Shown here: positions 6,685 to 43,328 of the stretch, piece by piece
Layout: each line of letters opens with the position of its first letter
Position numbering within the stretch: position 1 is the stretch's first letter
Assembly: GCA_963713615.1 (NCBI GenBank)
Contig: CAVQMM010000003.1
Coordinates: 1 to 51,694, forward strand
Direction: 5' to 3'
Origin: an uncultured Chlamydiae bacterium
GTDB lineage: Bacteria; Chlamydiota; Chlamydiia; Chlamydiales; JAJFMA01
DNA length: 51,694 nt
The notes under the pieces: model-generated
Databases searched by the model: none
The model's input: only the letters and a program-made list of their open reading frames with translations
Told to the model about the DNA's origin: nothing
Position numbers and translations under genes: made by a program

Positions 6685-6951
6685 AATTACCCACCTCGCC
6701 GCTACAATAAACCACAACAGACATTAAAAAATAATTATAAGCTATAAAACAAATTATAGCACAAAACTAATAATCATTTTCATATTGTCTGTAAAATAAA
6801 TATATTGCACGTTATTATGTAATGAAAATAAAAGAAGAGACAGTTCTTTTTACCAAATGGACGTAAGGACTTAAATGTTAGCTAAATAACACGCGCGCAG
6901 CGCTCTGAAGACTCTGAAGTGCGATCGCTTGCGACCCAAGTAACTCAAAAG

Positions 6952-13790: not shown

Positions 13791-13902
13791 TTGCTGCGGT
13801 AGCAGCAATTTTCCCTGTAGCCCCGACCTGGGGACGCGGCAGCGTCCTCCAGTCCGGGACCCTGGGAATAAAAAAATAAAATCAGTGCTGCGGTAGCAGC
13901 AC
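13791..13902. repeat. Two copies of the palindrome TGCTGC-GGTA-GCAGCA bracketing GC-rich hairpins (family G)
   Basis: Copies at 13791-13808 and 13885-13902; GGACGC-GGCA-GCGTCC hairpin between them. Confidence 0.6.
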
Positions 13903-13903
13903 G

Positions 13904-14563
13904 TCAATCCCCAACACCCTTTGACTCGACAAGCCCCTGTTCTGTGTAGATCCACCCATTTAATTTGCTATCACTGCGAACAGATAACCTAGAACGTATG
14001 GCTCCCCACTGCATAGGCTTGCCCTCCACCATAATCTTAGGCATGCCATAACGGTAAAGATCTACCTCAACCTTATGACCAAACCGACGCATTGCATGAT
14101 CAATCTTGTTAACCCTTAAAAATTGATCAAATTCCGCATAATTCCTCAGAACTATAGCTGGTACCCCCAAACGTATTCCACGCGCTATTGTGGAAACCTC
14201 ACGCGTCTTTTCATCACCACCCAGCTTAGCTTCAACCCTATCCATATAGGCGGCTACATGATCAGCAAAAGTCACATCCTCAGGGAAAGCGTTTAATACA
14301 CTTGGCAGCAGCGTTGAAAGCAAAACAACATCCTCAGCAACACATTCCTGACACTCACCTTCACCAAAGGTGATTATCGTTCGATCAGAGAAGGTGTCTA
14401 TGTGCATGCATGTACCTGCTGATAGGGCTACACCCAAACTCGCACGCATCTCTGCTGTCATTTTATTTGGATCAGAAAAAGTCATCACGTGGGCACTATT
14501 GAGAGGTGTTGTAGCGACCAATAACGCTCCAACCATGAGAAGAAAAAAAATAAACTGCTTCAT
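13904..14563 (-). CDS. Hypothetical secreted protein, paralogous to the N-terminal domain of the giant repeat protein
   Basis: Signal-peptide-like MKQFIFFLLMVGALLVATTPLNSA; GGAG RBS; LGVP...EFDQFL...FGHKVE...MP motif shared with the upstream gene. Confidence 0.8.
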   Translation of the reverse strand: MKQFIFFLLMVGALLVATTPLNSAHVMTFSDPNKMTAEMRASLGVALSAGTCMHIDTFSDRTIITFGEGECQECVAEDVVLLSTLLPSVLNAFPEDVTFADHVAAYMDRVEAKLGGDEKTREVSTIARGIRLGVPAIVLRNYAEFDQFLRVNKIDHAMRRFGHKVEVDLYRYGMPKIMVEGKPMQWGAIRSRLSVRSDSKLNGWIYTEQGLVESKGVGD

Positions 14564-14717
14564 GAAGAAAACTCCTACAAAAGGTTATGTCTCCCTAACT
14601 CTCCTTTTGCAAGAATATTCATGCTAGCAGAAATGCTTTAAGGCAGTATAAAGAACCAGACCCAAACTTATGATCAACACCATGAGACATTAAAAATTCA
14701 ATAATCAACAATCACTA

Positions 14718-17700
14718 TCAATCTTTTTTTAAATTCAATGAACCAGCGGAACTGTCATAAAGTGAAAGAACCATATTCTGAAATTCTTGTAGGTTACTTC
14801 CATTAGTGCAATTTGAGCCCCTCAACAACCCATTCACACGAACCGACCACAACCTTACCGCATTAGATAGTTGAAATTCAGTAATTGTTTTATCGTTTAA
14901 ATCATAGCCCTCGGTCGCTAAAATAAACCAGTTCTTCAGTTCATAATCGAAAACATATCTTTTATAGTACCAATTTGTAAAATAATTTATTACCGGGAGC
15001 TTGCTGTACCACGCTGTTGATTGAGGCTCCCATTCTTTAAATTTTTCTTTGAAGTTTTTATTAGTTAGTTTGCCATTATTCTTTGTTGCACTTAAATAAA
15101 AGTCCAAGACCCAGGGATAAGTTTCATTGAGATATTTGATGTTATCAACAATTCGGCTTTGTTGCGTACAAGCACTCTCAGACTCCGTGACTTGTGTGGC
15201 AATACCTTGTAGCCTAGCCCTGCTCAACGCGTTGAGAATAGCCTGAGCGTGATCCAACAAATTCGTTAATGACGTGACATTACCTCTATCTTCACCCCAT
15301 TTTATGCCACAAGACTCATCTCCGCACGAATCGCCTGCCCACTTATTGTTAATATCTAGACCTAGGCTGCTTCTAATCATTTGCAAGTTCCCATACCCCC
15401 CCCTCGCACTTAATTCGACATTGTCACCAATTTGTAAAGCTTTACGCGCATAGTCAATAAATTGTTGCCGCTCCTCTGGACTATATTTCTCTATCTCTAT
15501 AAGAAGTGCCTCCCAATAAGCTTCGTGTTGAAAAGGTGCATGCAGATACTCCTTTCCGTTTACTTTTAAATAATTCAGATGATATTTATTTGTTTTCCAA
15601 AATTCCTTTACAACAGGATAACTATTCTCGATTTCAATTAGATTTTTATGAGCCTTCCGCCTTCTAGCTTCGATATCATCGTTGATTTTGGTAGTAGCTG
15701 CAACTATTTGCTCTTTCTCTTCTGGTTTTTGTTCGGTTGTAGATTCTTTATTCGTTTCATTGTTGTTTTTATTTTGATCAGCCTCATAAATATTAAGCAC
15801 CATCTGATAGGGGCGAACCAGTAAAGCATATAGGGACGTGCTACCTTCTCCCCACCTTTTTCCGCAATTTTCGCCTTGGCAGCTTTGATCATACCACTTA
15901 TCCCTAAGACTGTATTGAAGACCTAAACGATCAAGCTCTTTATTTAATGCGCCTTTTATGTCTTCTACTCTTGGTTTGTTACCTTCATTTAGACCATAAA
16001 CCTTACTAGCTAGCGAAAGATAGTCATTTACAAGATTTTTCTCATCTAGATATTCTACCAAATTAACTTTCCCAGTTGTTGTATAGATCCAATTAAACAT
16101 GTACCTATATTGAGGATCATTTTGGGATGCGTATTTTTCCATTTCATTAAGAAATGATGGATATAATTCTGGGTATTTAGCATAGATCTCTTTCAACCGA
16201 TCAAGTTCGTCTTGTCTGGCTTCTTCGATAGTCTTCTGAGCAGGAGGTTTCGCCTGTTCTTCATTTTTATTCGACCCATTGCCACCTGTCGCTCCTTTTT
16301 CTGGCTGCTCCGTTGTTGCGGGTTTTAGATTAACAGTTCTCAGTTGATTTTCTAGCTGGTTGATGCGATCTTTAGCGGCTTGACGAGCTTGATCTCTTTC
16401 TGCCCGAGCTTTATCCAGATCGTTTTGCAAGCTCTTCGCTAATTGACCTGCCTTTGCTTGCTCAGCCGCTATGGCCCTCGATACCGCATCATCTACTGCG
16501 CGTTTTTCTCCAATTTCAAATTCTCTATCCTTTTTCTTGATTAGCTCGGTTATAGCATCGCTTTGGGATTTTTGAGTGGCTTCTGTGGTTGTTTTAACTT
16601 GTCCTTCCAGGTATTTAATGCGATCATTCATCGCATTCACTTGCTTTTGAGACTCACTCAGAGCTGTACTCTTTTCTCCTTGAGCATTCTGGGCTTTGAG
16701 CAACTCTTCTTTGGTTTGCGCTAGCATCTGCTTCAGAGCATCTCTATCCTTAGCTGCTGTCTCTGCCTGCACTTTAGCTGCATCTATTTGTCCCTTCAGG
16801 TCTCTAGTTTCTGTTGTGGCTGTGGTTGTTGTATTTTTCAGTTGTTCTTCCAGATATTTGATGCGATCATTCATCGCATTCACTTGCTTTTGAGATTCAC
16901 TCAGAGCCGTACTCTTTTCTCCTTGAGCATTCTGAGCTTTGAGCAACTCTTCTTTGGTTTGCGCTAACATCTGCTTCAGGGCGTCTCTGTCTTTGGCGGC
17001 TGAATCTACCTGCTCTTTAGCAGCACTTGTATCTTCCCTGGCCTTCGCCTTTGCTAAATCTATTTGCCCTTTCAAATCTCTGATTTCTGTTGTGGCTGTA
17101 GTCGTGGTATTTTTGAGCTGTTCTTCCAGGTATTTGATGCGATCATTCATCGCATTGACTTGTTTTTGAGCTTCACTTAAGGCTGTACTCTTTTCTCCTT
17201 GACCATTCTGTGCTTTGAGCAGCTCTTCTTTAGTTTGAACCAACATCTGCTTCAGAGCATCTCTGTCCTTAGCGGCTGTCTCTACCTGATCTTTCAGGTC
17301 TTGATTTTCCTTGCTAACCCTACGACTTTCATTAATAAGCGTTATTTTTGCGATTGTATTTTCTTCCTTATTTTTTAACCTTTCTGTTAGAGTTTTTATC
17401 TCATCGTTTCCCCTGCCTAGCTGTTCTTCCAGGTATTTGATGCGATCATTCATCGCATTGACTTGTTTTTGAGCTTCACTTAAGGCTGTACTCTTTTCTC
17501 CTTGACCATTCTGTGCTTTGAGCAGCTCTTCTTTAGTTTGCGCTAGCATCTGCTTCAGAGCATCTCTGTCCTTAGCAGCTGTCTCTGCCTGCACTTTAGC
17601 TGCATCTATTTGTCCCTTCAGGTCTCTAGTTTCTGTTGTGGCTGTGGTTGTTGTATTTTTCAGTTGTCCTTCCAGGTACTTGATGCGATCATTCATCGCA

Positions 17701-20700
17701 TTTACTTGCTTTTGAGACTCACTCAGAGCTGTACTCTTTTCTCCTTGAGCATTCTGGGCTTTGAGCAACTCTTCTTTGGTTTGCGCTAGCATCTGCTTCA
17801 GAGCATCTCTGTCCTTAGCGGCTGTCTCTGCCTGCACTTTAGCTGCATCTATTTGCCCCTTCAGGTCTCTAGTTTCTGTTGTGGCTGTGGTTGTTGTATT
17901 TTTAAGCTGTCCTTCCAGGTATTTGATACGATCGTTCATTGCATTTACTTGCTTTTGAGCATCGCTCAAAGCTGTACTCTTTTCTCCTTGAGCATTCTGG
18001 GCTTTGAGCAGCTCTTCTTTGGTTTGCGCTAGCATCTGTTTCAGAGCATCTCTGTCCTTAGCGGCTGTCTCTGCCTGCACTTTAGCTGCATCTATTTGTC
18101 CCTTCAGGTCTCTAGTTTCTGTTGTGGCTGTCGTTGTTGTATTTTTAAGCTGTCCTTCCAGGTATTTGATGCGATCATTCATCGCATTTACTTGCTTTTG
18201 AGCATCGCTCAAAGCTGTACTCTTTTCCCCTTGAGCATTCTGGGCTTTGAGCAGCTCTTCTTTAGTTTGAACCAACATCTGCTTCAGAGCATCTCTGTCC
18301 TTAGCGGCTGTCTCTGCCTGCACTTTAGCTGCATCTATTTGCCCCTTCAGGTCTCTAGTTTCTGTTGTGGCTGTGGTTGTTGTATTTTTCAGTTGTCCTT
18401 CCAGGTATTTGATGCGATCATTCATCGCATTTACTTGCTTTTGAGCATCGCTCAAAGCTGTACTCTTTTCCCCTTGAGCATTCTGGGCTTTGAGCAGCTC
18501 TTCTTTGGTTTGCGCTAGCATTTGCTTCAGAGCATCTCTGTCCTTAGCGGCTGTCTCTGCCTGCACTTTAGCTGCATCTATTTGTCCCTTCAGGTCTCTA
18601 GTTTCTGTTGTGGCTGTGGTTGTTGTATTTTTAAGCTGTCCTTCCAGGTATTTGATGCGATCGTTCATTGCATTTACTTGCTTTTGAGCATCGCTCAAAG
18701 CTGTACTCTTTTCCCCTTGAGCATTCTGGGCTTTGAGCAGCTCTTCTTTGGTTTGCGCTAGCATCTGTTTCAGAGCATCTCTGTCCTTAGCGGCTGTCTC
18801 TGCCTGCACTTTAGCTGCATCTATTTGTCCCTTCAGGTCTCTAGTTTCTGTTGTGGCTGTGGTTGTTGTATTTTTAAGCTGTCCTTCCAGGTATTTGATG
18901 CGATCGTTCATTGCATTTACTTGCTTTTGAGCGTCGCTCAAAGCTGTACTCTTTTCCCCTTGAGCATTCTGGGCTTTGAGCAGCTCTTCTTTGGTTTGCG
19001 CTAGCATCTGTTTCAGAGCATCTCTGTCCTTAGCGGCTGTCTCTGCCTGCACTTTAGCTGCATCTATTTGTCCCTTCAGGTCTCTAGTTTCTGTTGTGGC
19101 TGTGGTTGTTGTATTTTTAAGCTGTCCTTCCAGGTATTTGATGCGATCATTCATCGCATTTACTTGCTTTTGAGCACCGCTCAAAGCTGTACTCTTTTCC
19201 CCTTGAGCATTTTGGGCTTTGAGCAGCTCTTCTTTGGTTTGCGCTAGCATCTGCTTCAGAGCATCTCTGTCCTTAGCTGCTGTCTCTGCCTGCACTTTAG
19301 CTGCATCTATTTGTCCCTTCAGGTCTCTAGTTTCTGTTGTAACTGTGGTTGTCGCATTTTTGAGCTGTCCTTCCAGGTATTTGATGCGATCGTTCATTGC
19401 ATTTACTTGCTTTTGAGCATCGCTCAAAGCTGTACTCTTTTCCCCTTGAGCATTCTGGGATTTGAGCAGCTCTTCCTTGGTTTGCGCTAGCATCTGCTTC
19501 AGAGCATCTCTGTCCTTAGCGGCTGTCTCTGCCTGCACTTTAGCTGCATCTATTTGTCCCTTCAGGTCTCTAGTTTCTGTTGTGGCTGTGGTTGTTGTAT
19601 TTTTCAGTTGTCCTTCCAGGTACTTGATGCGATCATTCATCGCATTCACTTGCTTTTGAGACTCACTCAGAGCTGTACTCTTTTCTCCTTGAGCATTCTG
19701 GGCTTTGAGCAACTCTTCTTTGGTTTGCGCTAGCATCTGCTTCAGAGCATCTCTGTCCTTAGCGGCTGTCTCTGCCTGCACTTTAGCTGCATCTATTTGC
19801 CCCTTCAGGTCTCTAGTTTCTGTTGTGGCTGTGGTTGTTGTATTTTTCAGTTGTCCTTCCAGGTATTTGATGCGATCATTCATCGCATTTACTTGCTTTT
19901 GAGCATCGCTTAAAGCTGTACTCTTTTCCCCCTGAGCATTCTGGGCTTTGAGCAGCTCTTCTTTGGTTTGCGCTAGCATCTGTTTCAGAGCATCTCTGTC
20001 CTTAGCGGCTGTCTCTGCCTGCACTTTAGCTGCATCTATTTGTCCCTTCAGGTCTCTAGTTTCTGTTGTGGCTGTGGTTGTTGTATTTTTCAGTTGTCCT
20101 TCCAGGTACTTGATGCGATCATTCATCGCATTCACTTGCTTTTGAGACTCACTCAGAGCTGTACTCTTTTCTCCTTGAGCATTCTGGGCTTTGAGCAACT
20201 CTTCTTTGGTTTGCGCTAGCATCTGCTTCAGAGCATCTCTGTCCTTAGCGGCTGTCTCTGCCTGCACTTTAGCTGCATCTATTTGCCCCTTCAGGTCTCT
20301 AGTTTCTGTTGTGGCTGTGGTTGTTGTATTTTTAAGCTGTCCTTCCAGGTATTTGATGCGATCATTCATCGCATTTACTTGCTTTTGAGCATCGCTTAAA
20401 GCTGTACTCTTTTCCCCCTGAGCATTCTGGGCTTTGAGCAGCTCTTCTTTGGTTTGCGCTAGCATCTGTTTCAGAGCATCTCTGTCCTTAGCGGCTGTCT
20501 CTGCCTGCACTTTAGCTGCATCTATTTGTCCCTTCAGGTCTCTAGTTTCTGTTGTGGCTGTGGTTGTTGTATTTTTCAGTTGTCCTTCCAGGTACTTGAT
20601 GCGATCATTCATCGCATTCACTTGCTTTTGAGACTCACTCAGAGCTGTACTCTTTTCCCCTTGAGCATTCTGGGCTTTGAGCAACTCTTCTTTGGTTTGC

Positions 20701-23700
20701 GCTAGCATCTGCTTCAGAGCATCTCTGTCCTTAGCGGCTGTCTCTGCCTGCACTTTAGCTGCATCTATTTGCCCCTTCAGGTCTCTAGTTTCTGTTGTGG
20801 CTGTGGTTGTTGTATTTTTCAGTTGTCCTTCCAGGTATTTGATGCGATCATTCATCGCATTTACTTGCTTTTGAGCATCGCTTAAAGCTGTACTCTTTTC
20901 CCCTTGAGCATTCTGGGCTTTGAGCAGCTCTTCTTTGGTTTGCGCTAGCATTTGCTTCAGAGCATCTCTGTCCTTAGCGGCTGTCTCTGCCTGCACTTTA
21001 GCTGCATCTATTTGCCCCTTCAGGTCTCTAGTTTCTGTTGTGGCTGTGGTTGTTGTATTTTTCAGTTGTCCTTCCAGGTATTTGATGCGATCATTCATCG
21101 CATTTACTTGCTTTTGAGCATCGCTCAAAGCTGTACTCTTTTCCCCTTGAGCATTCTGGGCTTTGAGCAGCTCTTCTTTGGTTTGCGCTAGCATCTGTTT
21201 CAGAGCATCTCTATCCTTAGCGGCTGTCTCCGCCTGCACTTTAGCTGCATCTATTTGTCCCTTCAGGTCTCTAGTTTCTGTTGTGGCTGTGGTTGTTGTA
21301 TTTTTCAGCTGTCCTTCCAGGTATTTGATGCGATCATTCATCGCATTTACTTGCTTTTGAGCATCGCTCAAAGCTGTACTCTTTTCCCCTTGAGCATTCT
21401 GGGCTTTGAGCAGCTCTTCTTTGGTTTGCGCTAGCATCTGTTTCAGAGCATCTCTATCCTTAGCGGCTGTCTCCGCCTGCACTTTAGCTGCATCTATTTG
21501 TCCCTTCAGGTCTCTAGTTTCTGTTGTGGCTGTGGTTGTTGTATTTTTCAGCTGTCCTTCCAGGTATTTGATGCGATCATTCATCGCATTTACTTGCTTT
21601 TGAGCATCGCTTAAAGCTGTACTCTTTTCCCCCTGAGCATTCTGGGCTTTGAGCAGCTCTTCTTTGGTTTGCGCTAGCATCTGTTTCAGAGCATCTCTGT
21701 CCTTAGCGGCTGTCTCTGCCTGCACTTTAGCTGCATCTATTTGTCCCTTCAGGTCTCTAGTTTCTGTTGTGGCTGTGGTTGTTGTATTTTTCAGTTGTCC
21801 TTCCAGGTACTTGATGCGATCATTCATCGCATTCACTTGCTTTTGAGACTCACTCAGAGCTGTACTCTTTTCTCCTTGAGCATTCTGGGCTTTGAGCAAC
21901 TCTTCTTTGGTTTGCGCTAGCATCTGCTTCAGAGCATCTCTGTCCTTAACGGCTGTCTCTGCCTGCACTTTAGCTGCATCTATTTGCCCCTTCAGGTCTC
22001 TAGTTTCTGTTGTGGCTGTGGTTGTTGTATTTTTAAGCTGTCCTTCCAGGTATTTGATACGATCGTTCATTGCATTTACTTGCTTTTGAGCATCGCTCAA
22101 AGCTGTACTCTTTTCCCCTTGAGCATTCTGGGATTTGAGCAGCTCTTCTTTGGTTTGCGCTAGCATCTGTTTCAGAGCATCTCTGTCCTTAGCGGCTGTC
22201 TCCGCCTGCACTTTAGCTGCATCTATTTGCCCTTTCAGATCCCTCGTTTCCCTCGTTTCTGTTGTAACTGTGGTTGTCGCATTTTTGAGCTGTCCTTCCA
22301 GGTATTTGATGCGATCGTTCATTGCATTTACTTGCTTTTGAGACTCACTCAGAGCTGTACTCTTTTCTCCTTGAGCATTCTGGGCTTTGAGCAGCTCTTC
22401 TTTGGTTTGCGCTAGCATCTGTTTCAGAGCATCTCTGTCCTTAGCTGCTGTCTCTGCCTGCACTTTAGCTGCATCTATTTGTCCCTTCAGGTCTCTAGTT
22501 TCTGTTGTGGCTGTGGTTGTTGTATTTTTCAGTTGTCCTTCCAGGTACTTGATGCGATCATTCATCGCATTCACTTGCTTTTGAGACTCACTCAGAGCTG
22601 TACTCTTTTCTCCTTGAGCATTCTGGGCTTTGAGCAACTCTTCTTTGGTTTGCGCTAGCATCTGCTTCAGAGCATCTCTATCCTTAGCGGCTGTCTCCGC
22701 CTGCACTTTAGCTGCATCTATTTGTCCTTTCAGGTCTCTAGTTTCTGTTGTGGCTGTGGTTGTTGTATTTTTCAGTTGTCCTTCCAGGTATTTGATGCGA
22801 TCATTCATCGCATTTACTTGCTTTTGAGCATCGCTTAAAGCTGTACTCTTTTCCCCTTGAGCATTCTGGGCTTTGAGCAGCTCTTCTTTGGTTTGCGCTA
22901 GCATCTGTTTCAGAGCATCTCTGTCCTTAGCGGCTGTCTCTGCCTGCACTTTAGCTGCATCTATTTGTCCCTTCAGGTCTCTAGTTTCTGTTGTGGCTGT
23001 GGTTGTTGTATTTTTCAGTTGTCCTTCCAGGTATTTGATGCGATCATTCATCGCATTTACTTGCTTTTGAGCATCGCTTAAAGCTGTACTCTTTTCCCCT
23101 TGAGCATTCTGGGCTTTGAGCAGCTCTTCTTTGGTTTGCGCTAGCATCTGTTTCAGAGCATCTCTGTCCTTAGCGGCTGTCTCCGCCTGCACTTTAGCTG
23201 CATCTATTTGCCCTTTCAGATCCCTCGTTTCCCTCGTTTCTGTTGTAACTGTGGTTGTCGCATTTTTGAGCTGTCCTTCCAGGTATTTGATGCGATCGTT
23301 CATTGCATTTACTTGCTTTTGAGACTCACTCAGAGCTGTACTCTTTTCTCCTTGAGCATTCTGGGCTTTGAGCAGCTCTTCTTTGGTTTGCGCTAGCATC
23401 TGTTTCAGAGCATCTCTGTCCTTAGCTGCTGTCTCTGCCTGCACTTTAGCTGCATCTATTTGTCCTTTCAGATCCCTCGTTTCCCTCGTTTCTGTTGTAA
23501 CTGTGGTTGTCGCATTTTTGAGCTGTCCTTCCAGGTATTTGATGCGATCATTCATCGCATTTACTTGCTTTTGAGCATCGCTCAAAGCTGTACTCTTTTC
23601 CCCTTGAGCATTCTGGGATTTGAGCAGCTCTTCCTTGGTTTGCGCTAGCATCTGCTTCAGAGCATCTCTGTCCTTAGCGGCTGTCTCTGCCTGCACTTTA

Positions 23701-26700
23701 GCTGCATCTATTTGTCCTTTCAGATCCCTCGTTTCCCTCGTTTCTGTTGTAACTGTGGTTGTCGCATTTTTGAGCTGTCCTTCCAGGTATTTGATGCGAT
23801 CATTCATCGCATTTACTTGCTTTTGAGCATCGCTCAAAGCTGTACTCTTTTCCCCTTGAGCATTCTGGGATTTGAGCAGCTCTTCCTTGGTTTGCGCTAG
23901 CATCTGCTTCAGAGCATCTCTGTCCTTAGCGGCTGTCTCTGCCTGCACTTTAGCTGCATCTATTTGTCCTTTCAGATCCCTCGTTTCCCTCGTTTCTGTT
24001 GTAACTGTGGTTGTCGCATTTTTGAGCTGTCCTTCCAGGTATTTGATGCGATCATTCATCGCATTTACTTGCTTTTGAGCATCGCTCAAAGCTGTACTCT
24101 TTTCCCCTTGAGCATTCTGGGATTTGAGCAGCTCTTCCTTGGTTTGCGCTAGCATCTGCTTCAGAGCATCTCTGTCCTTAGCGGCTGTCTCTGCCTGCAC
24201 TTTAGCTGCATCTATTTGTCCCTTCAGGTCTCTAGTTTCTGTTGTGGCTGTGGTTGTTGTATTTTTCAGTTGTCCTTCCAGGTATTTGATGCGATCATTC
24301 ATCGCATTTACTTGCTTTTGAGACTCACTCAGAGCTGTACTCTTTTCTCCTTGAGCATTCTGGGCTTTGAGCAACTCTTCTTTGGTTTGCGCTAGCATCT
24401 GCTTCAGAGCATCTCTGTCCTTAGCGGCTGTCTCTGCCTGCACTTTAGCTGCATCTATTTGCCCCTTCAGGTCTCTAGTTTCTGTTGTGGCTGTGGTTGT
24501 TGTATTTTTAAGCTGTCCTTCCAGGTATTTGATACGATCGTTCATTGCATTTACTTGCTTTTGAGCATCGCTCAAAGCTGTACTCTTTTCTCCTTGAGCA
24601 TTCTGGGCTTTGAGCAGCTCTTCTTTGGTTTGCGCTAGCATCTGCTTCAGAGCATCTCTGTCCTTAGCGGCTGTCTCCGCCTGCACTTTAGCTGCATCTA
24701 TTTGTCCTTTCAGATCCCTCGTTTCTGTTGTAACTGTGGTTGTCGCATTTTTGAGCTGTCCTTCCAGGTATTTGATGCGATCATTCATCGCATTTACTTG
24801 CTTTTGAGCATCGCTCAAAGCTGTACTCTTTTCCCCTTGAGCATTCTGGGATTTGAGCAGCTCTTCCTTGGTTTGCGCTAGCATCTGCTTCAGAGCATCT
24901 CTATCCTTAGCGGCTGTCTCTGCCTGCACTTTAGCTGCATCTATTTGCCCCTTCAGGTCTCTAGTTTCTGTTGTGGCTGTGGTTGTTGTATTTTTCAGTT
25001 GTCCTTCCAGGTATTTGATGCGATCATTCATCGCATTCACTTGCTTTTGAGCATCGCTCAAAGCTGTACTCTTTTCTCCTTGAGCATTCTGGGCTTTGAG
25101 CAGCTCTTCTTTGGTTTGCGCTAGCATCTGTTTCAGAGCATCTCTGTCCTTAGCGGCTGTCTCCGCCTGCACTTTAGCTGCATCTATTTGTCCCCTCAGG
25201 TCTCTAGTTTCTGTTGTGGCTGTGGTTGTTGTATTTTTCAGTTGTCCTTCCAGGTACTTGATGCGATCATTCATCGCATTCACTTGCTTTTGAGACTCAC
25301 TCAGAGCTGTACTCTTTTCTCCTTGAGCATTCTGGGCTTTGAGCAACTCTTCTTTGGTTTGCGCTAGCATCTGCTTCAGAGCATCTCTGTCCTTAGCGGC
25401 TGTCTCTGCCTGCACTTTAGCTGCATCTATTTGCCCCTTCAGGTCTCTAGTTTCTGTTGTGGCTGTGGTTGTTGTATTTTTCAGTTGTCCTTCCAGGTAT
25501 TTGATGCGATCATTCATCGCATTTACTTGCTTTTGAGCATCGCTTAAAGCTGTACTCTTTTCCCCTTGAGCATTCTGGGCTTTGAGCAGCTCTTCTTTGG
25601 TTTGCGCTAGCATCTGTTTCAGAGCATCTCTGTCCTTAGCGGCTGTCTCCGCCTGCACTTTAGCTGCATCTATTTGTCCCTTCAGGTCTCTAGTTTCTGT
25701 TGTGGCTGTGGTTGTTGTATTTTTAAGCTGTCCTTCCAGGTATTTGATGCGATCATTCATCGCATTTACTTGCTTTTGAGCATCGCTCAAAGCTGTACTC
25801 TTTTCCCCTTGAGCATTCTGGGCTTTGAGCAGCTCTTCTTTGGTTTGCGCTAGCATCTGCTTCAGAGCATCTCTGTCCTTAGCGGCTGTCTCCGCCTGCA
25901 CTTTAGCTGCATCTATTTGTCCCTTCAGGTCTCTAGTTTCTGTTGTGGCTGTCGTTGTTGTATTTTTAAGCTGTCCTTCCAGGTATTTGATGCGATCATT
26001 CATCGCATTTACTTGCTTTTGAGCATCGCTCAAAGCTGTACTCTTTTCCCCTTGAGCATTCTGGGCTTTGAGCAGCTCTTCTTTGGTTTGCGCTAGCATC
26101 TGTTTCAGAGCATCTCTGTCCTTAGCGGCTGTCTCCGCCTGCACTTTAGCTGCATCTATTTGTCCCTTCAGGTCTCTAGTTTCTGTTGTGGCTGTCGTTG
26201 TTGTATTTTTAAGCTGTCCTTCCAGGTATTTGATGCGATCATTCATCGCATTCACTTGCTTTTGAGCATCGCTCAAAGCTGTACTCTTTTCTCCTTGAGC
26301 ATTCTGGGCTTTGAGCAGCTCTTCTTTGGTTTGCGCTAGCATCTGTTTCAGAGCATCTCTGTCCTTAGCGGCTATCTCCGCCTGCACTTTAGCTGCATCT
26401 ATTTGTCCCTTCAGGTCTCTAGTTTCTGTTGTGGCTGTCGTTGTTGTATTTTTAAGCTGTCCTTCCAGGTATTTGATGCGATCGTTCATTGCATTTACTT
26501 GCTTTTGAGACTCACTCAGAGCTGTACTCTTTTCTCCTTGAGCATTCTGGGCTTTGAGCAGCTCTTCTTTGGTTTGCGCTAGCATCTGCTTCAGAGCATC
26601 TCTGTCCTTAGCGGCTGTCTCTGCCTGCACTTTAGCTGCATCTATTTGCCCCTTCAGGTCTCTAGTTTCTGTTGTGGCTGTGGTTGTTGTATTTTTCAGT

Positions 26701-29261
26701 TGTCCTTCCAGGTATTTGATGCGATCATTCATCGCATTTACTTGCTTTTGAGCATCGCTTAAAGCTGTACTCTTTTCCCCCTGAGCATTCTGGGCTTTGA
26801 GCAGCTCTTCTTTGGTTTGCGCTAGCATCTGTTTCAGAGCATCTCTGTCCTTAGCGGCTGTCTCTGCCTGCACTTTAGCTGCATCTATTTGTCCCTTCAG
26901 GTCTCTAGTTTCTGTTGTGGCTGTGGTTGTTGTATTTTTCAGTTGTCCTTCCAGGTACTTGATGCGATCATTCATCGCATTCACTTGCTTTTGAGACTCA
27001 CTCAGAGCTGTACTCTTTTCTCCTTGAGCATTCTGGGCTTTGAGCAACTCTTCTTTGGTTTGCGCTAGCATCTGCTTCAGAGCATCTCTGTCCTTAGCGG
27101 CTGTCTCTGCCTGCACTTTAGCTGCATCTATTTGCCCCTTCAGGTCTCTAGTTTCTGTTGTGGCTGTGGTTGTTGTATTTTTAAGCTGTCCTTCCAGGTA
27201 TTTGATGCGATCATTCATCGCATTTACTTGCTTTTGAGCATCGCTTAAAGCTGTACTCTTTTCCCCCTGAGCATTCTGGGCTTTGAGCAGCTCTTCTTTG
27301 GTTTGCGCTAGCATCTGTTTCAGAGCATCTCTGTCCTTAGCGGCTGTCTCTGCCTGCACTTTAGCTGCATCTATTTGTCCCTTCAGGTCTCTAGTTTCTG
27401 TTGTGGCTGTGGTTGTTGTATTTTTCAGTTGTCCTTCCAGGTACTTGATGCGATCATTCATCGCATTCACTTGCTTTTGAGACTCACTCAGAGCTGTACT
27501 CTTTTCCCCTTGAGCATTCTGGGCTTTGAGCAACTCTTCTTTGGTTTGCGCTAGCATCTGCTTCAGAGCATCTCTGTCCTTAGCGGCTGTCTCTGCCTGC
27601 ACTTTAGCTGCATCTATTTGCCCCTTCAGGTCTCTAGTTTCTGTTGTGGCTGTGGTTGTTGTATTTTTCAGTTGTCCTTCCAGGTATTTGATGCGATCAT
27701 TCATCGCATTTACTTGCTTTTGAGCATCGCTTAAAGCTGTACTCTTTTCCCCTTGAGCATTCTGGGCTTTGAGCAGCTCTTCTTTGGTTTGCGCTAGCAT
27801 TTGCTTCAGAGCATCTCTGTCCTTAGCGGCTGTCTCTGCCTGCACTTTAGCTGCATCTATTTGCCCCTTCAGGTCTCTAGTTTCTGTTGTGGCTGTGGTT
27901 GTTGTATTTTTAAGCTGTCCTTCCAGGTATTTGATGCGATCATTCATCGCATTTACTTGCTTTTGAGCATCGCTCAAAGCTGTACTCTTTTCCCCTTGAG
28001 CATTCTGGGCTTTGAGCAGCTCTTCTTTGGTTTGCGCTAGCATCTGTTTCAGAGCATCTCTGTCCTTAGCGGCTGTCTCCGCCTGCACTTTAGCTGCACT
28101 TATATCTTCAGCTACCTTCGCGTTTACAGTCTCCATTTGCCCTTTGAGATCTCGCACATCTGTTAAGGCTGCCGTCTTTTCGGCCTGGGCATTTTTGAGT
28201 TGCTCTTCCAAGTACTTGATGCGATCGTTCATCGCATTGACTTGCTTCTGAGACTCACTCAGCGTTGTGCTTTTTTGTCCTTGGGTATTCTGCGCATTGA
28301 TTAGCTGTTCCTTCGTTTGAATCAACATTTGCTTGAGGGATTCCCTGTCCTTGGCAGAGGCTTCCTTCAAACTTTCTATCTGCCTCAAAAGTTCCTGATT
28401 AACATAGCTTTCTTCATCCTTTGCCCGATTGGCAGCTTCCAACTCACCCTGCATCTTGGCATAATCGGCATTATGAACCTCTGCCCCAGGCACTTCATGC
28501 ACCTCTCCAGGCACTTCTGTGGCCTTCTCCGGCGCTTCTGCTTCCTTAACCTCTGGCATGCCAAGGACTATGCCCAATTTTGGGTCATAATAGGCCCCTG
28601 TCATCACCCAATTAGAGTCATGAGGAACGGTTTCTTTTATCCAAATCCAACCTTCAACCCCAGTTCTGGAATTGAACCCTCCCCTAGGCTTTGTCTTTGC
28701 CCTTAAAACGGGCATTTCCCCCGCCCTCCCCACAGGTACTAGCTCTATCGTATGCCCATACTTTGGAATTAATTGTTGTAGGTGGTTCGCTACAATGAAT
28801 TGCTCAAACTCAGGGTCTTGCTTGAATACCGCCACCCACTTGGGGTTGCCCAACTCGTTAGCATAAACCTCTCGCAAAAACTCTTTGACATGCGCATGCC
28901 CCGGGTAGCGTTTTTCAAACTTCCCGCCATATTGGTCTATAGCTCCCTGCAAATCTCTATCCTGTGCTTGCCTTCTGGCTAAATCACTCAAAAATATTAT
29001 CCCAATATTCGGATCCGTCTCCGGATGGCTTTGAGCAAAAACCTCCCAATCATTACCATGCTGAACAACCGTCAAATCACGATTGGCGGCGGTGGCTTGC
29101 TTGATGGATTCTTCGATGTATGCCTTGGCTGCCGGATTAAGACTTGGCAAGTGAACAGTCATTGAAAGGGTGGGATCTGGAGCTTCTTCTGCCCAGGCGC
29201 CAGGGATGCTCACCCCGATCAACAATATACTCAATAGAGTTGCAAACCATAGTCGACTCAT
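14718..29261 (-). CDS. Giant secreted coiled-coil repeat protein (~4847 aa)
   Basis: Uninterrupted ORF (track 14718-29279). Preferred start ATG 29261 gives a signal peptide MSRLWFATLLSILLIGVSIPGAWA and has AGGTGA upstream; ~47-48 repeats of 81 aa. Confidence 0.92.
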   Translation of the reverse strand: MSRLWFATLLSILLIGVSIPGAWAEEAPDPTLSMTVHLPSLNPAAKAYIEESIKQATAANRDLTVVQHGNDWEVFAQSHPETDPNIGIIFLSDLARRQAQDRDLQGAIDQYGGKFEKRYPGHAHVKEFLREVYANELGNPKWVAVFKQDPEFEQFIVANHLQQLIPKYGHTIELVPVGRAGEMPVLRAKTKPRGGFNSRTGVEGWIWIKETVPHDSNWVMTGAYYDPKLGIVLGMPEVKEAEAPEKATEVPGEVHEVPGAEVHNADYAKMQGELEAANRAKDEESYVNQELLRQIESLKEASAKDRESLKQMLIQTKEQLINAQNTQGQKSTTLSESQKQVNAMNDRIKYLEEQLKNAQAEKTAALTDVRDLKGQMETVNAKVAEDISAAKVQAETAAKDRDALKQMLAQTKEELLKAQNAQGEKSTALSDAQKQVNAMNDRIKYLEGQLKNTTTTATTETRDLKGQIDAAKVQAETAAKDRDALKQMLAQTKEELLKAQNAQGEKSTALSDAQKQVNAMNDRIKYLEGQLKNTTTTATTETRDLKGQIDAAKVQAETAAKDRDALKQMLAQTKEELLKAQNAQGEKSTALSESQKQVNAMNDRIKYLEGQLKNTTTTATTETRDLKGQIDAAKVQAETAAKDRDALKQMLAQTKEELLKAQNAQGEKSTALSDAQKQVNAMNDRIKYLEGQLKNTTTTATTETRDLKGQIDAAKVQAETAAKDRDALKQMLAQTKEELLKAQNAQGEKSTALSESQKQVNAMNDRIKYLEGQLKNTTTTATTETRDLKGQIDAAKVQAETAAKDRDALKQMLAQTKEELLKAQNAQGEKSTALSDAQKQVNAMNDRIKYLEGQLKNTTTTATTETRDLKGQIDAAKVQAETAAKDRDALKQMLAQTKEELLKAQNAQGEKSTALSESQKQVNAMNDRIKYLEGQLKNTTTTATTETRDLKGQIDAAKVQAEIAAKDRDALKQMLAQTKEELLKAQNAQGEKSTALSDAQKQVNAMNDRIKYLEGQLKNTTTTATTETRDLKGQIDAAKVQAETAAKDRDALKQMLAQTKEELLKAQNAQGEKSTALSDAQKQVNAMNDRIKYLEGQLKNTTTTATTETRDLKGQIDAAKVQAETAAKDRDALKQMLAQTKEELLKAQNAQGEKSTALSDAQKQVNAMNDRIKYLEGQLKNTTTTATTETRDLKGQIDAAKVQAETAAKDRDALKQMLAQTKEELLKAQNAQGEKSTALSDAQKQVNAMNDRIKYLEGQLKNTTTTATTETRDLKGQIDAAKVQAETAAKDRDALKQMLAQTKEELLKAQNAQGEKSTALSESQKQVNAMNDRIKYLEGQLKNTTTTATTETRDLRGQIDAAKVQAETAAKDRDALKQMLAQTKEELLKAQNAQGEKSTALSDAQKQVNAMNDRIKYLEGQLKNTTTTATTETRDLKGQIDAAKVQAETAAKDRDALKQMLAQTKEELLKSQNAQGEKSTALSDAQKQVNAMNDRIKYLEGQLKNATTTVTTETRDLKGQIDAAKVQAETAAKDRDALKQMLAQTKEELLKAQNAQGEKSTALSDAQKQVNAMNDRIKYLEGQLKNTTTTATTETRDLKGQIDAAKVQAETAAKDRDALKQMLAQTKEELLKAQNAQGEKSTALSESQKQVNAMNDRIKYLEGQLKNTTTTATTETRDLKGQIDAAKVQAETAAKDRDALKQMLAQTKEELLKSQNAQGEKSTALSDAQKQVNAMNDRIKYLEGQLKNATTTVTTETRETRDLKGQIDAAKVQAETAAKDRDALKQMLAQTKEELLKSQNAQGEKSTALSDAQKQVNAMNDRIKYLEGQLKNATTTVTTETRETRDLKGQIDAAKVQAETAAKDRDALKQMLAQTKEELLKSQNAQGEKSTALSDAQKQVNAMNDRIKYLEGQLKNATTTVTTETRETRDLKGQIDAAKVQAETAAKDRDALKQMLAQTKEELLKAQNAQGEKSTALSESQKQVNAMNDRIKYLEGQLKNATTTVTTETRETRDLKGQIDAAKVQAETAAKDRDALKQMLAQTKEELLKAQNAQGEKSTALSDAQKQVNAMNDRIKYLEGQLKNTTTTATTETRDLKGQIDAAKVQAETAAKDRDALKQMLAQTKEELLKAQNAQGEKSTALSDAQKQVNAMNDRIKYLEGQLKNTTTTATTETRDLKGQIDAAKVQAETAAKDRDALKQMLAQTKEELLKAQNAQGEKSTALSESQKQVNAMNDRIKYLEGQLKNTTTTATTETRDLKGQIDAAKVQAETAAKDRDALKQMLAQTKEELLKAQNAQGEKSTALSESQKQVNAMNDRIKYLEGQLKNATTTVTTETRETRDLKGQIDAAKVQAETAAKDRDALKQMLAQTKEELLKSQNAQGEKSTALSDAQKQVNAMNDRIKYLEGQLKNTTTTATTETRDLKGQIDAAKVQAETAVKDRDALKQMLAQTKEELLKAQNAQGEKSTALSESQKQVNAMNDRIKYLEGQLKNTTTTATTETRDLKGQIDAAKVQAETAAKDRDALKQMLAQTKEELLKAQNAQGEKSTALSDAQKQVNAMNDRIKYLEGQLKNTTTTATTETRDLKGQIDAAKVQAETAAKDRDALKQMLAQTKEELLKAQNAQGEKSTALSDAQKQVNAMNDRIKYLEGQLKNTTTTATTETRDLKGQIDAAKVQAETAAKDRDALKQMLAQTKEELLKAQNAQGEKSTALSDAQKQVNAMNDRIKYLEGQLKNTTTTATTETRDLKGQIDAAKVQAETAAKDRDALKQMLAQTKEELLKAQNAQGEKSTALSDAQKQVNAMNDRIKYLEGQLKNTTTTATTETRDLKGQIDAAKVQAETAAKDRDALKQMLAQTKEELLKAQNAQGEKSTALSESQKQVNAMNDRIKYLEGQLKNTTTTATTETRDLKGQIDAAKVQAETAAKDRDALKQMLAQTKEELLKAQNAQGEKSTALSDAQKQVNAMNDRIKYLEGQLKNTTTTATTETRDLKGQIDAAKVQAETAAKDRDALKQMLAQTKEELLKAQNAQGEKSTALSESQKQVNAMNDRIKYLEGQLKNTTTTATTETRDLKGQIDAAKVQAETAAKDRDALKQMLAQTKEELLKAQNAQGEKSTALSDAQKQVNAMNDRIKYLEGQLKNTTTTATTETRDLKGQIDAAKVQAETAAKDRDALKQMLAQTKEELLKAQNAQGEKSTALSESQKQVNAMNDRIKYLEGQLKNTTTTATTETRDLKGQIDAAKVQAETAAKDRDALKQMLAQTKEELLKSQNAQGEKSTALSDAQKQVNAMNDRIKYLEGQLKNATTTVTTETRDLKGQIDAAKVQAETAAKDRDALKQMLAQTKEELLKAQNAQGEKSTALSGAQKQVNAMNDRIKYLEGQLKNTTTTATTETRDLKGQIDAAKVQAETAAKDRDALKQMLAQTKEELLKAQNAQGEKSTALSDAQKQVNAMNDRIKYLEGQLKNTTTTATTETRDLKGQIDAAKVQAETAAKDRDALKQMLAQTKEELLKAQNAQGEKSTALSDAQKQVNAMNDRIKYLEGQLKNTTTTATTETRDLKGQIDAAKVQAETAAKDRDALKQMLAQTKEELLKAQNAQGEKSTALSDAQKQVNAMNDRIKYLEGQLKNTTTTATTETRDLKGQIDAAKVQAETAAKDRDALKQMLVQTKEELLKAQNAQGEKSTALSDAQKQVNAMNDRIKYLEGQLKNTTTTATTETRDLKGQIDAAKVQAETAAKDRDALKQMLAQTKEELLKAQNAQGEKSTALSDAQKQVNAMNDRIKYLEGQLKNTTTTATTETRDLKGQIDAAKVQAETAAKDRDALKQMLAQTKEELLKAQNAQGEKSTALSESQKQVNAMNDRIKYLEGQLKNTTTTATTETRDLKGQIDAAKVQAETAAKDRDALKQMLAQTKEELLKAQNGQGEKSTALSEAQKQVNAMNDRIKYLEEQLGRGNDEIKTLTERLKNKEENTIAKITLINESRRVSKENQDLKDQVETAAKDRDALKQMLVQTKEELLKAQNGQGEKSTALSEAQKQVNAMNDRIKYLEEQLKNTTTTATTEIRDLKGQIDLAKAKAREDTSAAKEQVDSAAKDRDALKQMLAQTKEELLKAQNAQGEKSTALSESQKQVNAMNDRIKYLEEQLKNTTTTATTETRDLKGQIDAAKVQAETAAKDRDALKQMLAQTKEELLKAQNAQGEKSTALSESQKQVNAMNDRIKYLEGQVKTTTEATQKSQSDAITELIKKKDREFEIGEKRAVDDAVSRAIAAEQAKAGQLAKSLQNDLDKARAERDQARQAAKDRINQLENQLRTVNLKPATTEQPEKGATGGNGSNKNEEQAKPPAQKTIEEARQDELDRLKEIYAKYPELYPSFLNEMEKYASQNDPQYRYMFNWIYTTTGKVNLVEYLDEKNLVNDYLSLASKVYGLNEGNKPRVEDIKGALNKELDRLGLQYSLRDKWYDQSCQGENCGKRWGEGSTSLYALLVRPYQMVLNIYEADQNKNNNETNKESTTEQKPEEKEQIVAATTKINDDIEARRRKAHKNLIEIENSYPVVKEFWKTNKYHLNYLKVNGKEYLHAPFQHEAYWEALLIEIEKYSPEERQQFIDYARKALQIGDNVELSARGGYGNLQMIRSSLGLDINNKWAGDSCGDESCGIKWGEDRGNVTSLTNLLDHAQAILNALSRARLQGIATQVTESESACTQQSRIVDNIKYLNETYPWVLDFYLSATKNNGKLTNKNFKEKFKEWEPQSTAWYSKLPVINYFTNWYYKRYVFDYELKNWFILATEGYDLNDKTITEFQLSNAVRLWSVRVNGLLRGSNCTNGSNLQEFQNMVLSLYDSSAGSLNLKKD
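16600..28350 (-). repeat. Intragenic tandem array of 243-bp units (five 252-bp variants), ~47-48 copies
   Basis: Antisense ORF starts recur every 243 bp, with 252-bp spacing at 22135, 23116, 23368, 23620 and 23872; the end units are diverged. Confidence 0.97.
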
Positions 29262-29528
29262 TGCATCACCTAGCAACATATTAATTATACTTACATCAAA
29301 CCATTCATTTAGTATTATAAAATCAAATTATTTATTTAATAAAGATTTTTATTTAAAAGTGTGGCTTATGGTAGATAAATTTAATCACAATAGAAAACAA
29401 ACGATTACAGGACTGCCGTCTGGCCAAGATTAGGGATGTAAGCCGTGTTGATCCTCTTTAATTCTTGGACCTCCCTGGATAAAAAATAAATTAGAAATAG
29501 CCGAAAGAAACAAGGCTTCCTATGTGCT

Positions 29529-29553
29529 GCAGTCAGAAAATGACTGCGCCACA
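29529..29553 (-). repeat. Single family B REP
   Basis: GCAGTCA-GAAAA-TGACTGC-GCCACA. Confidence 0.65.
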
Positions 29554-29587
29554 TAAGAAGCGCTCCCAATTCTTCGCAAGATTTTTT

Positions 29588-29747
29588 GGCCTTATTCACC
29601 TTTGCGGTCAGTTTTCGGTCGACTGCAAAAGGATCGTCTGTCGCGTTTTGCTCCTCGGACATAGCTGGCGCTATGCCCTCGTCACAAACCACGACATCCG
29701 ACCTTTTTCGTCCGACCGAAATTCTGACCGTAAAGGTGAACAAGGCC
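29588..29747 (-). mobile_element. 160-bp MITE (family A), copy 3, inverted
   Basis: Reverse complement of copy 1; TSD GATTTTTT at 29580-29587 and 29748-29755. Confidence 0.93.
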
Positions 29748-29822
29748 GATTTTTTTAAGCTCTTGTTGCCAAATTAATAATAAAACGTTGACAATACCAA
29801 TCTTGGACCTAAAGGAGAAAAA

Positions 29823-31130
29823 ATGTTTCGGCCGAAATTTAAGCGCACGCTCGTTAATATAGCTCTAACCCTGCTCACCTTTGCCCCCATCGTGATCGAA
29901 GGTACATTTGAAAGTATTAAAGCCGCCGGGATGGGTGGCACCGTAATGGCTCATGGCCAGGATTCGCTCTCCGCAGCGATCAACCCTGCCTTGGCTACTG
30001 AAGTGGGGCAGCGATGGGATATAGGAGTTAGTTTTCGACAGTGGAACAAGAGCTTAACGATCGATCCTCCTCGTCCAGTGCCAGAATTGCAGACGGGAAC
30101 CTTCCGTCCCTCACGCCGGCTAGATCCGTTTCCTGCTCTAGGCATAAACCTGGCACTTGATGATTGTCTTATTTTTAGCATCAGTGGCTATGTATACAAA
30201 GAGATAGATACCCGTTATAATACACAGCTAACCGACTTCTCGGGTGTGTCAATATCAGGCGCGCCTCTCGGAAATAATGCACGCATCACTTGGTGTGTGG
30301 ATACGGTTACCACAGCTTTGGCTTACCAAATCAATGACTATCACTCTCTTGGCATAGGCTTAAACTGGAATTTTGGGCATTTTCTAGCCTCTGGATTTAA
30401 TCGTATGCCCGGTGGTGTCTTTACGATAGCTCCTGGGTCTGTCACGAATAATGGCTATGACGATGCTTTTGGTGTAGGGGCTACCATAGGATGGGTAGGT
30501 CATTTCTGCGATGGTGTCACAGCTGGGCTCTCCTATACTCCCCAAACCAATATGAGCCGATTCCACAAGTACAAAGGCTTGCTGGCGGAAGGGCGCATAG
30601 ACCTCCCAGAAACCATGCGAGGGGGTATCGCTTACGATAGTGGCAATTGCTGGACCGTTGCCCTAGATGGCGAGTGGCGCCGCTATGGTCGTGTCAACTC
30701 ATTGGCAAATCCCTTTCCAGGCGATACCGACGATCCATTCGCATTTATCGGCTTGTTCGGCAACGCTAATGGTCCCGGTTTTGGCTGGAAAGATGAATGG
30801 GTGCTAAAGACGGGTGTTGAATACGCGTTCACACCATGTTTGATAGGGCGATTGGGTTATAGACACGAGTGGAATCCCCTCCGCAATCAAACGACGAATA
30901 CTGCCATGGACGTCTTCATCGTGGAAACCGTTACAGACTACATTACAGGTGGTTTCACCTACCTCTATGAAGACTTTGAGGCTTCCTTCTTTGCTGAGTG
31001 TGGGTCCAAGAGAACGCGGCATAGCTATTACCCAGAAATAAATCCACTAGACTTTGATTTCGACAGCGCAAATTTGATCTATAAATCGCGCAATTATGCC
31101 TTTGGGTTATCGCTAGGAAAGCCTTTTTGA
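29823..31130 (+). CDS. OmpP1/FadL-family outer-membrane transporter
   Basis: Signal peptide; AAGMGG...DSLSAAINPA hatch motif; amphipathic beta-strands; C-terminal Phe; AAGGAG RBS. Confidence 0.85.
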   Translation: MFRPKFKRTLVNIALTLLTFAPIVIEGTFESIKAAGMGGTVMAHGQDSLSAAINPALATEVGQRWDIGVSFRQWNKSLTIDPPRPVPELQTGTFRPSRRLDPFPALGINLALDDCLIFSISGYVYKEIDTRYNTQLTDFSGVSISGAPLGNNARITWCVDTVTTALAYQINDYHSLGIGLNWNFGHFLASGFNRMPGGVFTIAPGSVTNNGYDDAFGVGATIGWVGHFCDGVTAGLSYTPQTNMSRFHKYKGLLAEGRIDLPETMRGGIAYDSGNCWTVALDGEWRRYGRVNSLANPFPGDTDDPFAFIGLFGNANGPGFGWKDEWVLKTGVEYAFTPCLIGRLGYRHEWNPLRNQTTNTAMDVFIVETVTDYITGGFTYLYEDFEASFFAECGSKRTRHSYYPEINPLDFDFDSANLIYKSRNYAFGLSLGKPF

Positions 31131-40060: not shown

Positions 40061-40136
40061 CGCAATACATCATACCCGCACAATCAGATCCATTATAATA
40101 AATCCCCTCAGCAATCCTTCTTTTTAGGTGTCGTTT

Positions 40137-41261: not shown

Positions 41262-41411
41262 AGTTCACCCCCTCACAATGTTACTCGACAACCAGAGTCT
41301 TGAAGTGCGTGTCGCTCGCGGCCGCACTTCCAAAGCGTAGCACATCTATTCGATGGTTTGTGGCAGCAAAAAGCTCCCCCAACTCTTCACAAGAGCCCTC
41401 ATTTATTCCCC

Positions 41412-41440
41412 TTGCTATTAATTTTTGTTTACGCTATAAT
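41412..41440 (+). promoter_or_regulatory. Predicted promoter for brnQ-2
   Basis: TTGCTA-N17-TATAAT. Confidence 0.7.
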
Positions 41441-41446
41441 AGTGGC

Positions 41447-41602
41447 ATGTTTAAGCAAACCGAATCACATTCGTCTACTACAATTCAGTCCCCTGGACTG
41501 GTGCCCTATCAGTGCACTTCCAAGGGTCAGTTTGTGATCGCTCCCGCTGCTTTTCCATTTCTCCTTATCCCTTCTGTGCTCGTGCGCCTCGGGCGCATAT
41601 AA
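41447..41602 (+). CDS. Putative leader peptide (51 aa, ending VIAPAAFPFLLIPSVLVRLGRI)
   Basis: ATG 6 nt after the -10 box (leaderless-like); hairpin TGCGCC-TCG-GGCGCA just before the stop. Confidence 0.45.
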   Translation: MFKQTESHSSTTIQSPGLVPYQCTSKGQFVIAPAAFPFLLIPSVLVRLGRI

Positions 41603-43303: not shown

Positions 43304-43328
43304 CTGCAGAAGTATTTGCGCTGCTCCC

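Follow-up and report, generated by a model that had tools for sequence, protein, structure and literature searches.

What could a bacterium do with a secreted protein of 4,847 residues, most of which form a single tandem repeat? The question is posed by contig CAVQMM010000003.1 of an uncultured Chlamydiae bacterium. We analysed its whole length of 51,694 bp, which we call the window; it is one of the three contigs of a 3.97-Mb genome that is 99.1% complete, and it is broken at both ends. On its minus strand lies a gene for a giant protein made up of a signal-peptide-like N-terminus, an N-terminal domain of an unnamed family (N-dom), a 48-unit repeat array and a C-terminus of unique sequence. 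We propose tentatively, with a little less than even confidence, that this protein is anchored to the envelope and acts as a tether or adhesin of very great length. In what follows G000 denotes the source genome, in which the window contig is C3, and G001, G002 and G003 are congeners. A preliminary description, made from the letters of the window, had taken the host to be chlamydial, and the genome does look so: G000 has 12 matches to TLC nucleotide transporters, which imply an intracellular lifestyle, and a sub-threshold OmcB-type match. Genes in the window also run in the order rpe-efp-accB-accC, which we take to be that of Chlamydia trachomatis.

A predicted coiled-coil stalk of 48 units

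The minus strand from 14718 to 29279 is a single open frame of 4,853 aa. Its second in-frame ATG, at 29261, is preceded by the Shine-Dalgarno motif AGGTGA and for that reason is the likelier start. The coding sequence counted from there (14718..29261, by ORF and motif scan) is one intact frame of 4,847 aa, with the coordinates given in the preliminary description, and the mature protein has a computed mass of about 533 kDa and a pI of 8.6. Read from the translation, the first 24 residues (29190..29261, minus strand; MSRLWFATLLSILLIGVSIPGAWA|EE) have the appearance of a Sec signal peptide ending in GAWA, without a lipobox; because the stretch contains no Cys, a lipoprotein signal is excluded. 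N-dom follows at 28515..29165, and a Pro/Glu-rich linker with a short helical lead-in, both assigned from sequence (28353..28514), connects it to the array. The signal peptide and the N-terminal domain of ~200 aa that had been described earlier are both present.

The array itself occupies 16509..28352 on the minus strand (aa 310-4257 of the giant protein). Parsing at the protein level gave 48 units and 3,948 aa, namely 40 units of 81 aa, five of 84 aa (the 81-aa unit plus ETR) and edge units of 95, 101 and 92 aa; Tandem Repeats Finder reported a 243-bp period over 17419-28098, with 43.8 copies and 95% matches. Such an array is far beyond chance. Its commonest residues are A (15.0%), K (12.3%), T (11.9%), Q (11.0%), L (9.8%), E (8.2%) and D (6.9%), while Pro, Cys, Trp and His are absent from all 3,948 aa (Pro is missing from aa 300 to 4260). 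The near-identical 81-aa units without Pro that the preliminary description had noticed are thus real, though its count of ~47 becomes 48 and its list of abundant residues had omitted Thr, the third commonest. It had recognised no named family in the repeat, and neither did we: nothing rose above the cut-off in Pfam or NCBIfam, and a PDB sequence search with three repeat units returned nothing meaningful. Among the 48 units there are 39 distinct DNA versions and 15 distinct protein versions. When 38 of the 81-aa units were aligned, 42 of 243 nucleotide columns were variable (mean pairwise DNA identity 96.2%); by a hand count from the table, 26 of the 35 variable codons differed only synonymously and nine changed the residue. 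Since differences between units are mostly synonymous, purifying selection appears to act on each of them. Every unit contains three Gly residues as well as a Thr-rich run of nine residues (NTTTTATTET). Over the array these runs amount to ~390 Thr, and one idea that the sequence allows is that the run could be an O-glycosylation tract.

Hydrophobicity along the array follows one period. In the spectrum of 16 consecutive units the dominant harmonic was k=23 (period 3.522), with a power of 917 against at most 134 for all others; when the unit was shuffled 1,000 times, this power was reached only 7 times. At a period of 3.522 the three helix-prone segments of the unit (aa 1-24, 29-54 and 64-81) have phases of -158, -151 and -164 degrees. 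They thus lie within 13 degrees of one another, a closeness that three random phases attain with P = 0.004. In sliding 28-residue windows the phase stayed within about 40 degrees around the unit, the low-helix-propensity stretches QGEKS and NTTTTATTET included. As a control, the ER/K charged spacer of a paralog lacked the 3.5 period (power 1.0). A single ER/K alpha-helix had been a candidate structure for the repeat and was dropped, its composition and its 3.52-residue stripe being unlike those of that spacer. The heptad arithmetic of the preliminary description agrees with these data: 81 aa correspond to 23 turns, or 10 heptads plus 1 hendecad, and hence to the single 81/23 = 3.52 harmonic with three segments in one phase and one stutter per unit. 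The 84-aa unit corresponds to 24 turns, and the variant unit lengths deviate from 81 aa by 3, 11 and 14 residues.

Because one phase is kept across Gly- and Thr-rich stretches, one continuous, left-handed predicted coiled coil suits the sequence better than a string of helical-bundle beads. Its hydrophobic positions come round about every 3.5 residues and hold a single register, and the helix breaker Pro is absent, though each unit does include Gly and the Thr-rich run. At 0.1485 nm per residue the predicted rod would measure about 586 nm, or about 600 nm if flanking helices are included, within the 0.55-0.6 um that had been proposed. A complex prediction for two copies of three units, run without controls, scored 0.03, a value that speaks neither for nor against pairing of the chains. 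The further suggestion that the protein is a molecular ruler found no support of its own.

Two other accounts of the array have to be weighed here. Each 81-aa unit might fold back as a small three-helix bundle of spectrin- or Ebh-like type, with the final helix continuing into the unit that follows, to give a shorter and thicker monomeric string of roughly 190 nm. QGEKS and NTTTTATTET do split the unit into segments of ~24, 26 and 18 residues, and the 42-aa stalk units of the G001 ortholog described below are Gly-rich (41 Gly in 470 residues) and helix-loop-helix in look. We nevertheless consider such beads unlikely, as the one heptad phase kept by all segments is not required of independent bundle helices, and as unit 1 has an Ala-rich, helix-friendly stretch in place of the Thr-rich run. 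Alternatively, the gene could be real and its 48 units an assembly error, the array having been expanded, collapsed, or homogenised in its variants by polishing. The window is a whole contig with two broken ends, and near one of them both rpsA (S1; 48369-49960, plus strand, at least four frames) and nusA (50260-51541, plus strand, two frames) are split; since both genes are essential, these splits are probably assembly indel errors and show that base-level errors exist in the G000 assembly. Nor did any public read or assembled contig span the array: none of 18 public runs contained more than 0.15 of the words sampled, and the four that were assembled gave contigs of 56-273 nt, several of them identical to the unique 3' part of the giant gene. 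Yet the giant gene, in the same assembly, stays open through 14.5 kb, most of its units differ in DNA as counted above, and its longest exact internal duplicate measures only 1,350 bp (19713-21062 = 26562-27911; the next, 542 bp), so that reads longer than ~1.5 kb would place every unit. A long duplicated block, as expected from artefactual expansion, is not seen in the array. A miscounted array therefore seems to us very doubtful, and a unit count of 48 is plausible.

End domains and the FadL-like neighbour

To define the N-dom family we aligned nine members (alignment A2), which yielded a 210-position profile. The giant's own N-dom matches this profile at E 2.6e-69, a circular value because it is among the nine sequences that built it; independent support comes from paralogs that tblastn found in G000 before the profile was made and from an ortholog in G001 (40% identity). 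Over the order, the profile matched in 66 of 400 genomes and in 47 of 216 genera, with 7 matches in G000. AlphaFold2 built from A2 an alpha/beta model with pLDDT 73.6 and pTM 0.68. N-dom belongs to no Pfam or NCBIfam family and has no relative among PDB sequences, where a search with A2 likewise gave nothing meaningful; the ESM Atlas had no usable match. Homolog searches found nothing with N-dom among proteins of 544-2000 aa, nothing with A2 among those of 430-2000 aa, and the giant protein alone when its N-terminal region was compared with proteins of 2669-8493 aa.

Within the genus N-dom proteins share a plan of signal peptide, N-dom, helical spacer and varied cargo; the cargo ends are GT34-like, DUF3638 or J-domain-like, and N-dom-only proteins of 203-315 aa occur as well. 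Two G000 proteins (C1 1732116-1734731, plus strand, and C1 3529836-3531698, minus strand) have an ER/K-type charged spacer and a weak GT34-like end, their spacers being of very different length and one of them an ER/K helix of ~350 aa. The second of these genes adjoins genes for a duplicated PI3/4-kinase-like protein and a GT92 protein. A third G000 protein (C1 421802-432661, minus strand; 3,619 aa) has a signal peptide, N-dom, a Lys/Glu-rich linker and a very large remainder that includes a DUF3638 P-loop region. In G001 a 509-aa protein (C17, L052:2258-3787, minus strand) consists of a signal peptide, N-dom, a coiled coil, a Thr/Pro-rich linker and a J-domain-like end with an HPD motif, which scored 22.5 bits against DnaJ, below the cut-off of 27.8; its gene adjoins one for a 253-aa N-dom-only protein and a FadL-like gene.

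A FadL-like gene also stands beside the giant gene. Head-to-head with it lies a gene for an outer-membrane barrel of the FadL/TodX family (29823..31130, plus strand; Pfam Toluene_X, 44.8 bits against a cut-off of 29.7). On the other side a gene for a 219-aa protein (13904..14563, minus strand) encodes a signal peptide and N-dom only, a paralog of the giant's own. A terminator-like hairpin with a T-run directly follows this small gene on its 3' side (13885..13902, minus strand), and the same consensus scan found no such site between it and the giant gene; the two are probably co-transcribed. By synteny, the three genes form an accessory cassette of about 17 kb (13900..31130). G001 has an ortholog of the giant gene between the same flanking genes, with a contig break in its repeats that leaves it on two contigs, whereas in G003 (99% complete) the cassette is absent from the syntenic site, YitT lying 165 bp from a 143-aa gene; in G002 the site coincides with a contig end. 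Identity between the two orthologs is 22.5% in the C-terminus, lower than in N-dom, against 65-93% for the flanking genes. The G001 stalk consists of different 42-aa units, which likewise peak at a period of 3.5. Between the two species the stalk repeats have been exchanged as a whole, and both end domains have been kept.

The closest relative of the window's barrel is the copy beside the G001 ortholog (48%), and in a tree of 13 FadL-like rows the two are sisters with 100/99 support, so the barrel gene appears to have been inherited together with the giant gene. A FadL/TodX gene lies head-to-head with an N-dom gene at four loci (G000 C3, G001 C84, G001 C17 and G003 C8), with intergenic gaps of about 140-560 bp. 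With 4-7 barrels in ~3 Mb, we estimate the chance of random adjacency at roughly 1% per locus, a back-of-envelope figure in which related genomes are not independent. The anchor-like character ascribed to the N-terminal domain in the preliminary description fits both its family and its FadL gene context, in which it behaves as a shared address or anchor module.

Downstream of the array come a unique helical segment and a Pro/Gly-rich linker (16233..16508, minus strand), assigned from sequence; a helix seen here in a low-confidence model is a hint only. Three C-terminal domains follow on the same strand. Domain 1 (15759..16232) carries a YxKYP motif and CxxxxCGxxW, domain 2 (15189..15686) is a diverged duplicate of it, and domain 3 (14721..15188) is bracketed by two Cys that are kept in the G001 ortholog. 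Domains 1 and 2, of ~160 aa each and with the YxKYP and CxxxxCGxxW motifs, align with a Smith-Waterman z of 9.3, as high as none of 300 shuffles; a blastp self-comparison of the C-terminus, which is less sensitive than this test, detected no internal repeat. Domain 3 gave z values of 1.7 and 0.6 against the other two and an hhalign probability of 1% (E 0.05). Of the triplicated tip that had been proposed, the duplication thus stands, while kinship of domain 3 is without sequence support, and the unique C-terminus is 596 residues long rather than ~500. The giant protein has only six Cys, all of them within its C-terminal domains and arranged in three pairs that are conserved in the G001 ortholog.

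Outside the two orthologs the C-terminus has no visible relatives in what we searched. It matched no Pfam family above the cut-off and no NCBIfam family; the ESM Atlas gave no usable match, and a representative library of 1.84 billion proteins returned the giant protein itself only. A profile of the C-terminal module (alignment A1), run over the order, matched in 2 of 400 genomes, G000 and G001. A locus search with A1 found the G001 contig only among genome contigs and none among metagenome contigs, and its PDB sequence search gave nothing meaningful. AlphaFold2, run on the 596 aa with no alignment, reached a pLDDT of 40.5 and was unusable.

Three further loci were noted. Four tandem FadL-like paralogs stand at G000 C1 780177-785449 with no N-dom gene nearby. 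In the window itself, a second giant gene (1-6717, minus strand) is truncated by the start of the contig, codes for more than 2,239 aa and is adhesin-like, with DUF4347, cadherin, Big_9 and Cadherin_4/5 matches, and three paralogs of BrnQ-type branched-chain amino-acid carriers lie in a row at 40128-44607 (plus strand).

Tether, effector or scaffold

How would an envelope-anchored tether or adhesin work? The protein would be exported by Sec and cleaved after AWA. N-dom might then dock it at the FadL-like barrel or pass it through, as the shared module and the head-to-head genes suggest, which would make the N-terminus the cell-proximal end. Beyond it, the 48 units would form one left-handed coiled coil, predicted from the 3.52-residue stripe, that stutters once in every 81 aa and extends for about 590 nm. 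At the far end the C-terminal domains, stabilised by disulfides outside the cytoplasm, may bind a host-derived target. An accessory locus whose evolution far outpaces that of its flanks, and whose stalk repeats have been swapped between species, would be in keeping with a protein of host interaction.

Several observations weigh against this proposal. The three Gly and the Thr-rich run of each unit could be loops. The N-dom model has no convincing fold: Foldseek against PDB gave a best E of 0.038 with a TM of 0.24, and a VIA wide search a best Z of 6.8 over 75 residues, within the tool's stated noise range. Because N-dom has no recognisable fold, its anchor role is argued from gene context only. 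That context is itself uneven, as a FadL-like gene adjoins an N-dom gene in one of seven cases in G000, two of seven in G001 and one of four in G003, and in the 13-row tree the N-dom-adjacent barrels are not one clade, the other two copies falling outside the sister pair. Distant N-dom proteins (other families, 430-520 aa) have no obvious signal peptide and a different C-terminal domain. A J-domain-like cargo would need Hsp70 and would point to delivery into a host compartment rather than surface display. Finally, the evidence for expression consists of two short contigs, among those matching the 3' part of the gene, from a single RNA library.

Some of these points lead to a different account, in which the giant is a released effector: N-dom and the FadL-like barrel would serve for export, and the rod, once free in the inclusion or in the host cell, would bridge host membranes in the manner of a golgin. 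The cargo of sibling N-dom proteins suits a host compartment (a J-domain-like end with HPD, eukaryote-type GT34-like ends, a DUF3638 P-loop giant), and so does the intracellular lifestyle implied by the 12 transporter matches. Three conserved Cys pairs at the tip, however, fit an oxidising, extracytoplasmic place rather than the host cytosol, and the J-domain match is below its cut-off. Long stiff spacers, moreover, recur between N-dom and cargo family-wide, a pattern that makes more sense with N-dom as the fixed point. On balance we find a released effector improbable. Less probable still, and in our view very unlikely, is a periplasmic or envelope scaffold, a spacer or cytoskeleton-like cable comparable to Omp-alpha or Lpp. 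The periplasm is about one twentieth as wide as the ~590-nm rod is long, so that the rod would span some twenty periplasm widths. It is true that the giant has a signal peptide and no recognised outer-membrane export signal (Pfam, NCBIfam), and that coiled-coil periplasmic spacers exist, for example Omp-alpha, given as a 50-nm rod in a review (PMC5082667). An accessory, fast-evolving locus that is absent from a congener is nonetheless unlike a core structural element. The envelope-anchored tether or adhesin is accordingly the account that we retain, at the tentative strength given above.

Known systems and significance

In its layout of anchor, stalk and tip the giant resembles fibrillar adhesins, and its gene arrangement is reminiscent of two-partner secretion, but in no known family did the defining features that we looked for turn up. 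Two-partner secretion (TpsA/TpsB, for example FHA/FhaC and EtpA/EtpB) follows the same logic: a giant fibrous passenger begins with a signal peptide and a module of ~200 aa, and a gene for an outer-membrane barrel adjoins its own. Its passengers carry a TPS domain and form a beta-helix, and an Omp85/POTRA transporter is encoded next to them; here the barrel is of FadL/TodX rather than Omp85/ShlB type, the passenger is predicted to be alpha-helical, and Pfam finds no TPS (Haemagg_act) domain in the N-terminal 310 aa. The trimeric autotransporter adhesins BadA, SadA and YadA likewise have a repetitive coiled-coil stalk of hundreds of nm with a binding head, and their stalk length varies by whole repeats. 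They are anchored by the C-terminus and have cores with Asn at d, whereas in the giant the polarity is reversed, with the presumed anchor N-terminal, and the core is hydrophobic; the last 596 aa hold no YadA-type C-terminal anchor by Pfam or NCBIfam.

Streptococcal M proteins are also secreted tandem-repeat coiled-coil fibrils with imperfect heptads and fast evolution, but they are about ten times shorter and are anchored to the wall of monoderms by an LPXTG motif, which the giant lacks. Giantin and other golgins resemble it as multi-thousand-residue coiled-coil tethers with one end fixed and the other binding, and differ in being eukaryotic, cytosolic, transmembrane-anchored and unrelated in sequence. 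Ebh of Staphylococcus aureus, another giant secreted rod with dozens of near-identical helical repeats, is built of three-helix-bundle units and anchored C-terminally, while the heptad phase of the giant runs through the whole unit. PorV of type IX secretion is a FadL-family barrel too, and it holds a secreted-cargo domain at the outer membrane, the type IX cargo signals being C-terminal. The adjoining barrel scored 33 bits against the PorV family (cut-off 90), and NCBIfam shows no C-terminal sorting family in the giant; its FadL-like neighbour does not imply a type IX secretion system. A type I adhesin of the RTX kind fits no better, as the N-terminus has a Sec-like signal peptide and Pfam finds no RTX family in the C-terminus.

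At record level, a literature search found nothing on the giant protein, an 81-residue chlamydial repeat or a FadL-linked module. Three things are new here: the 81-aa repeat, the N-dom family and the modular way in which it is used, and the link of N-dom to FadL-type barrels. A bolder combination, which we think unlikely to hold as a whole, would see in N-dom and the FadL-like barrel a new route of environmental chlamydiae, Sec-dependent and two-partner-like, for the display or export of varied cargo on helical spacers (GT-like, J-domain-like, DUF3638 and the fibre). The fibre would then be the longest continuous coiled coil described (3,948 aa and ~0.59 um), and N-dom-bearing transferases encoded in G000 might add sugars to its ~390 Thr. 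For comparison, the longest known coiled coil is, according to a 2016 review, a 3,056-aa segment of giantin (PMC5082667).

Nearly all that is known of environmental chlamydiae comes from genomes, and little is established about how they attach to their protist hosts and manipulate them. N-dom occurs in about a fifth of the sampled genera, and in this genus it marks a set of signal-peptide-bearing proteins. Its recurring link to FadL-type barrels may point to a route, so far undescribed, by which proteins come to lie on the outer membrane or past it. The locus also offers a case of a wholesale exchange of stalk repeats between species in which both end domains were retained, and a rod-forming repeat of such exceptional length and regularity might find use as a natural ruler or as scaffolding for nanomaterials.

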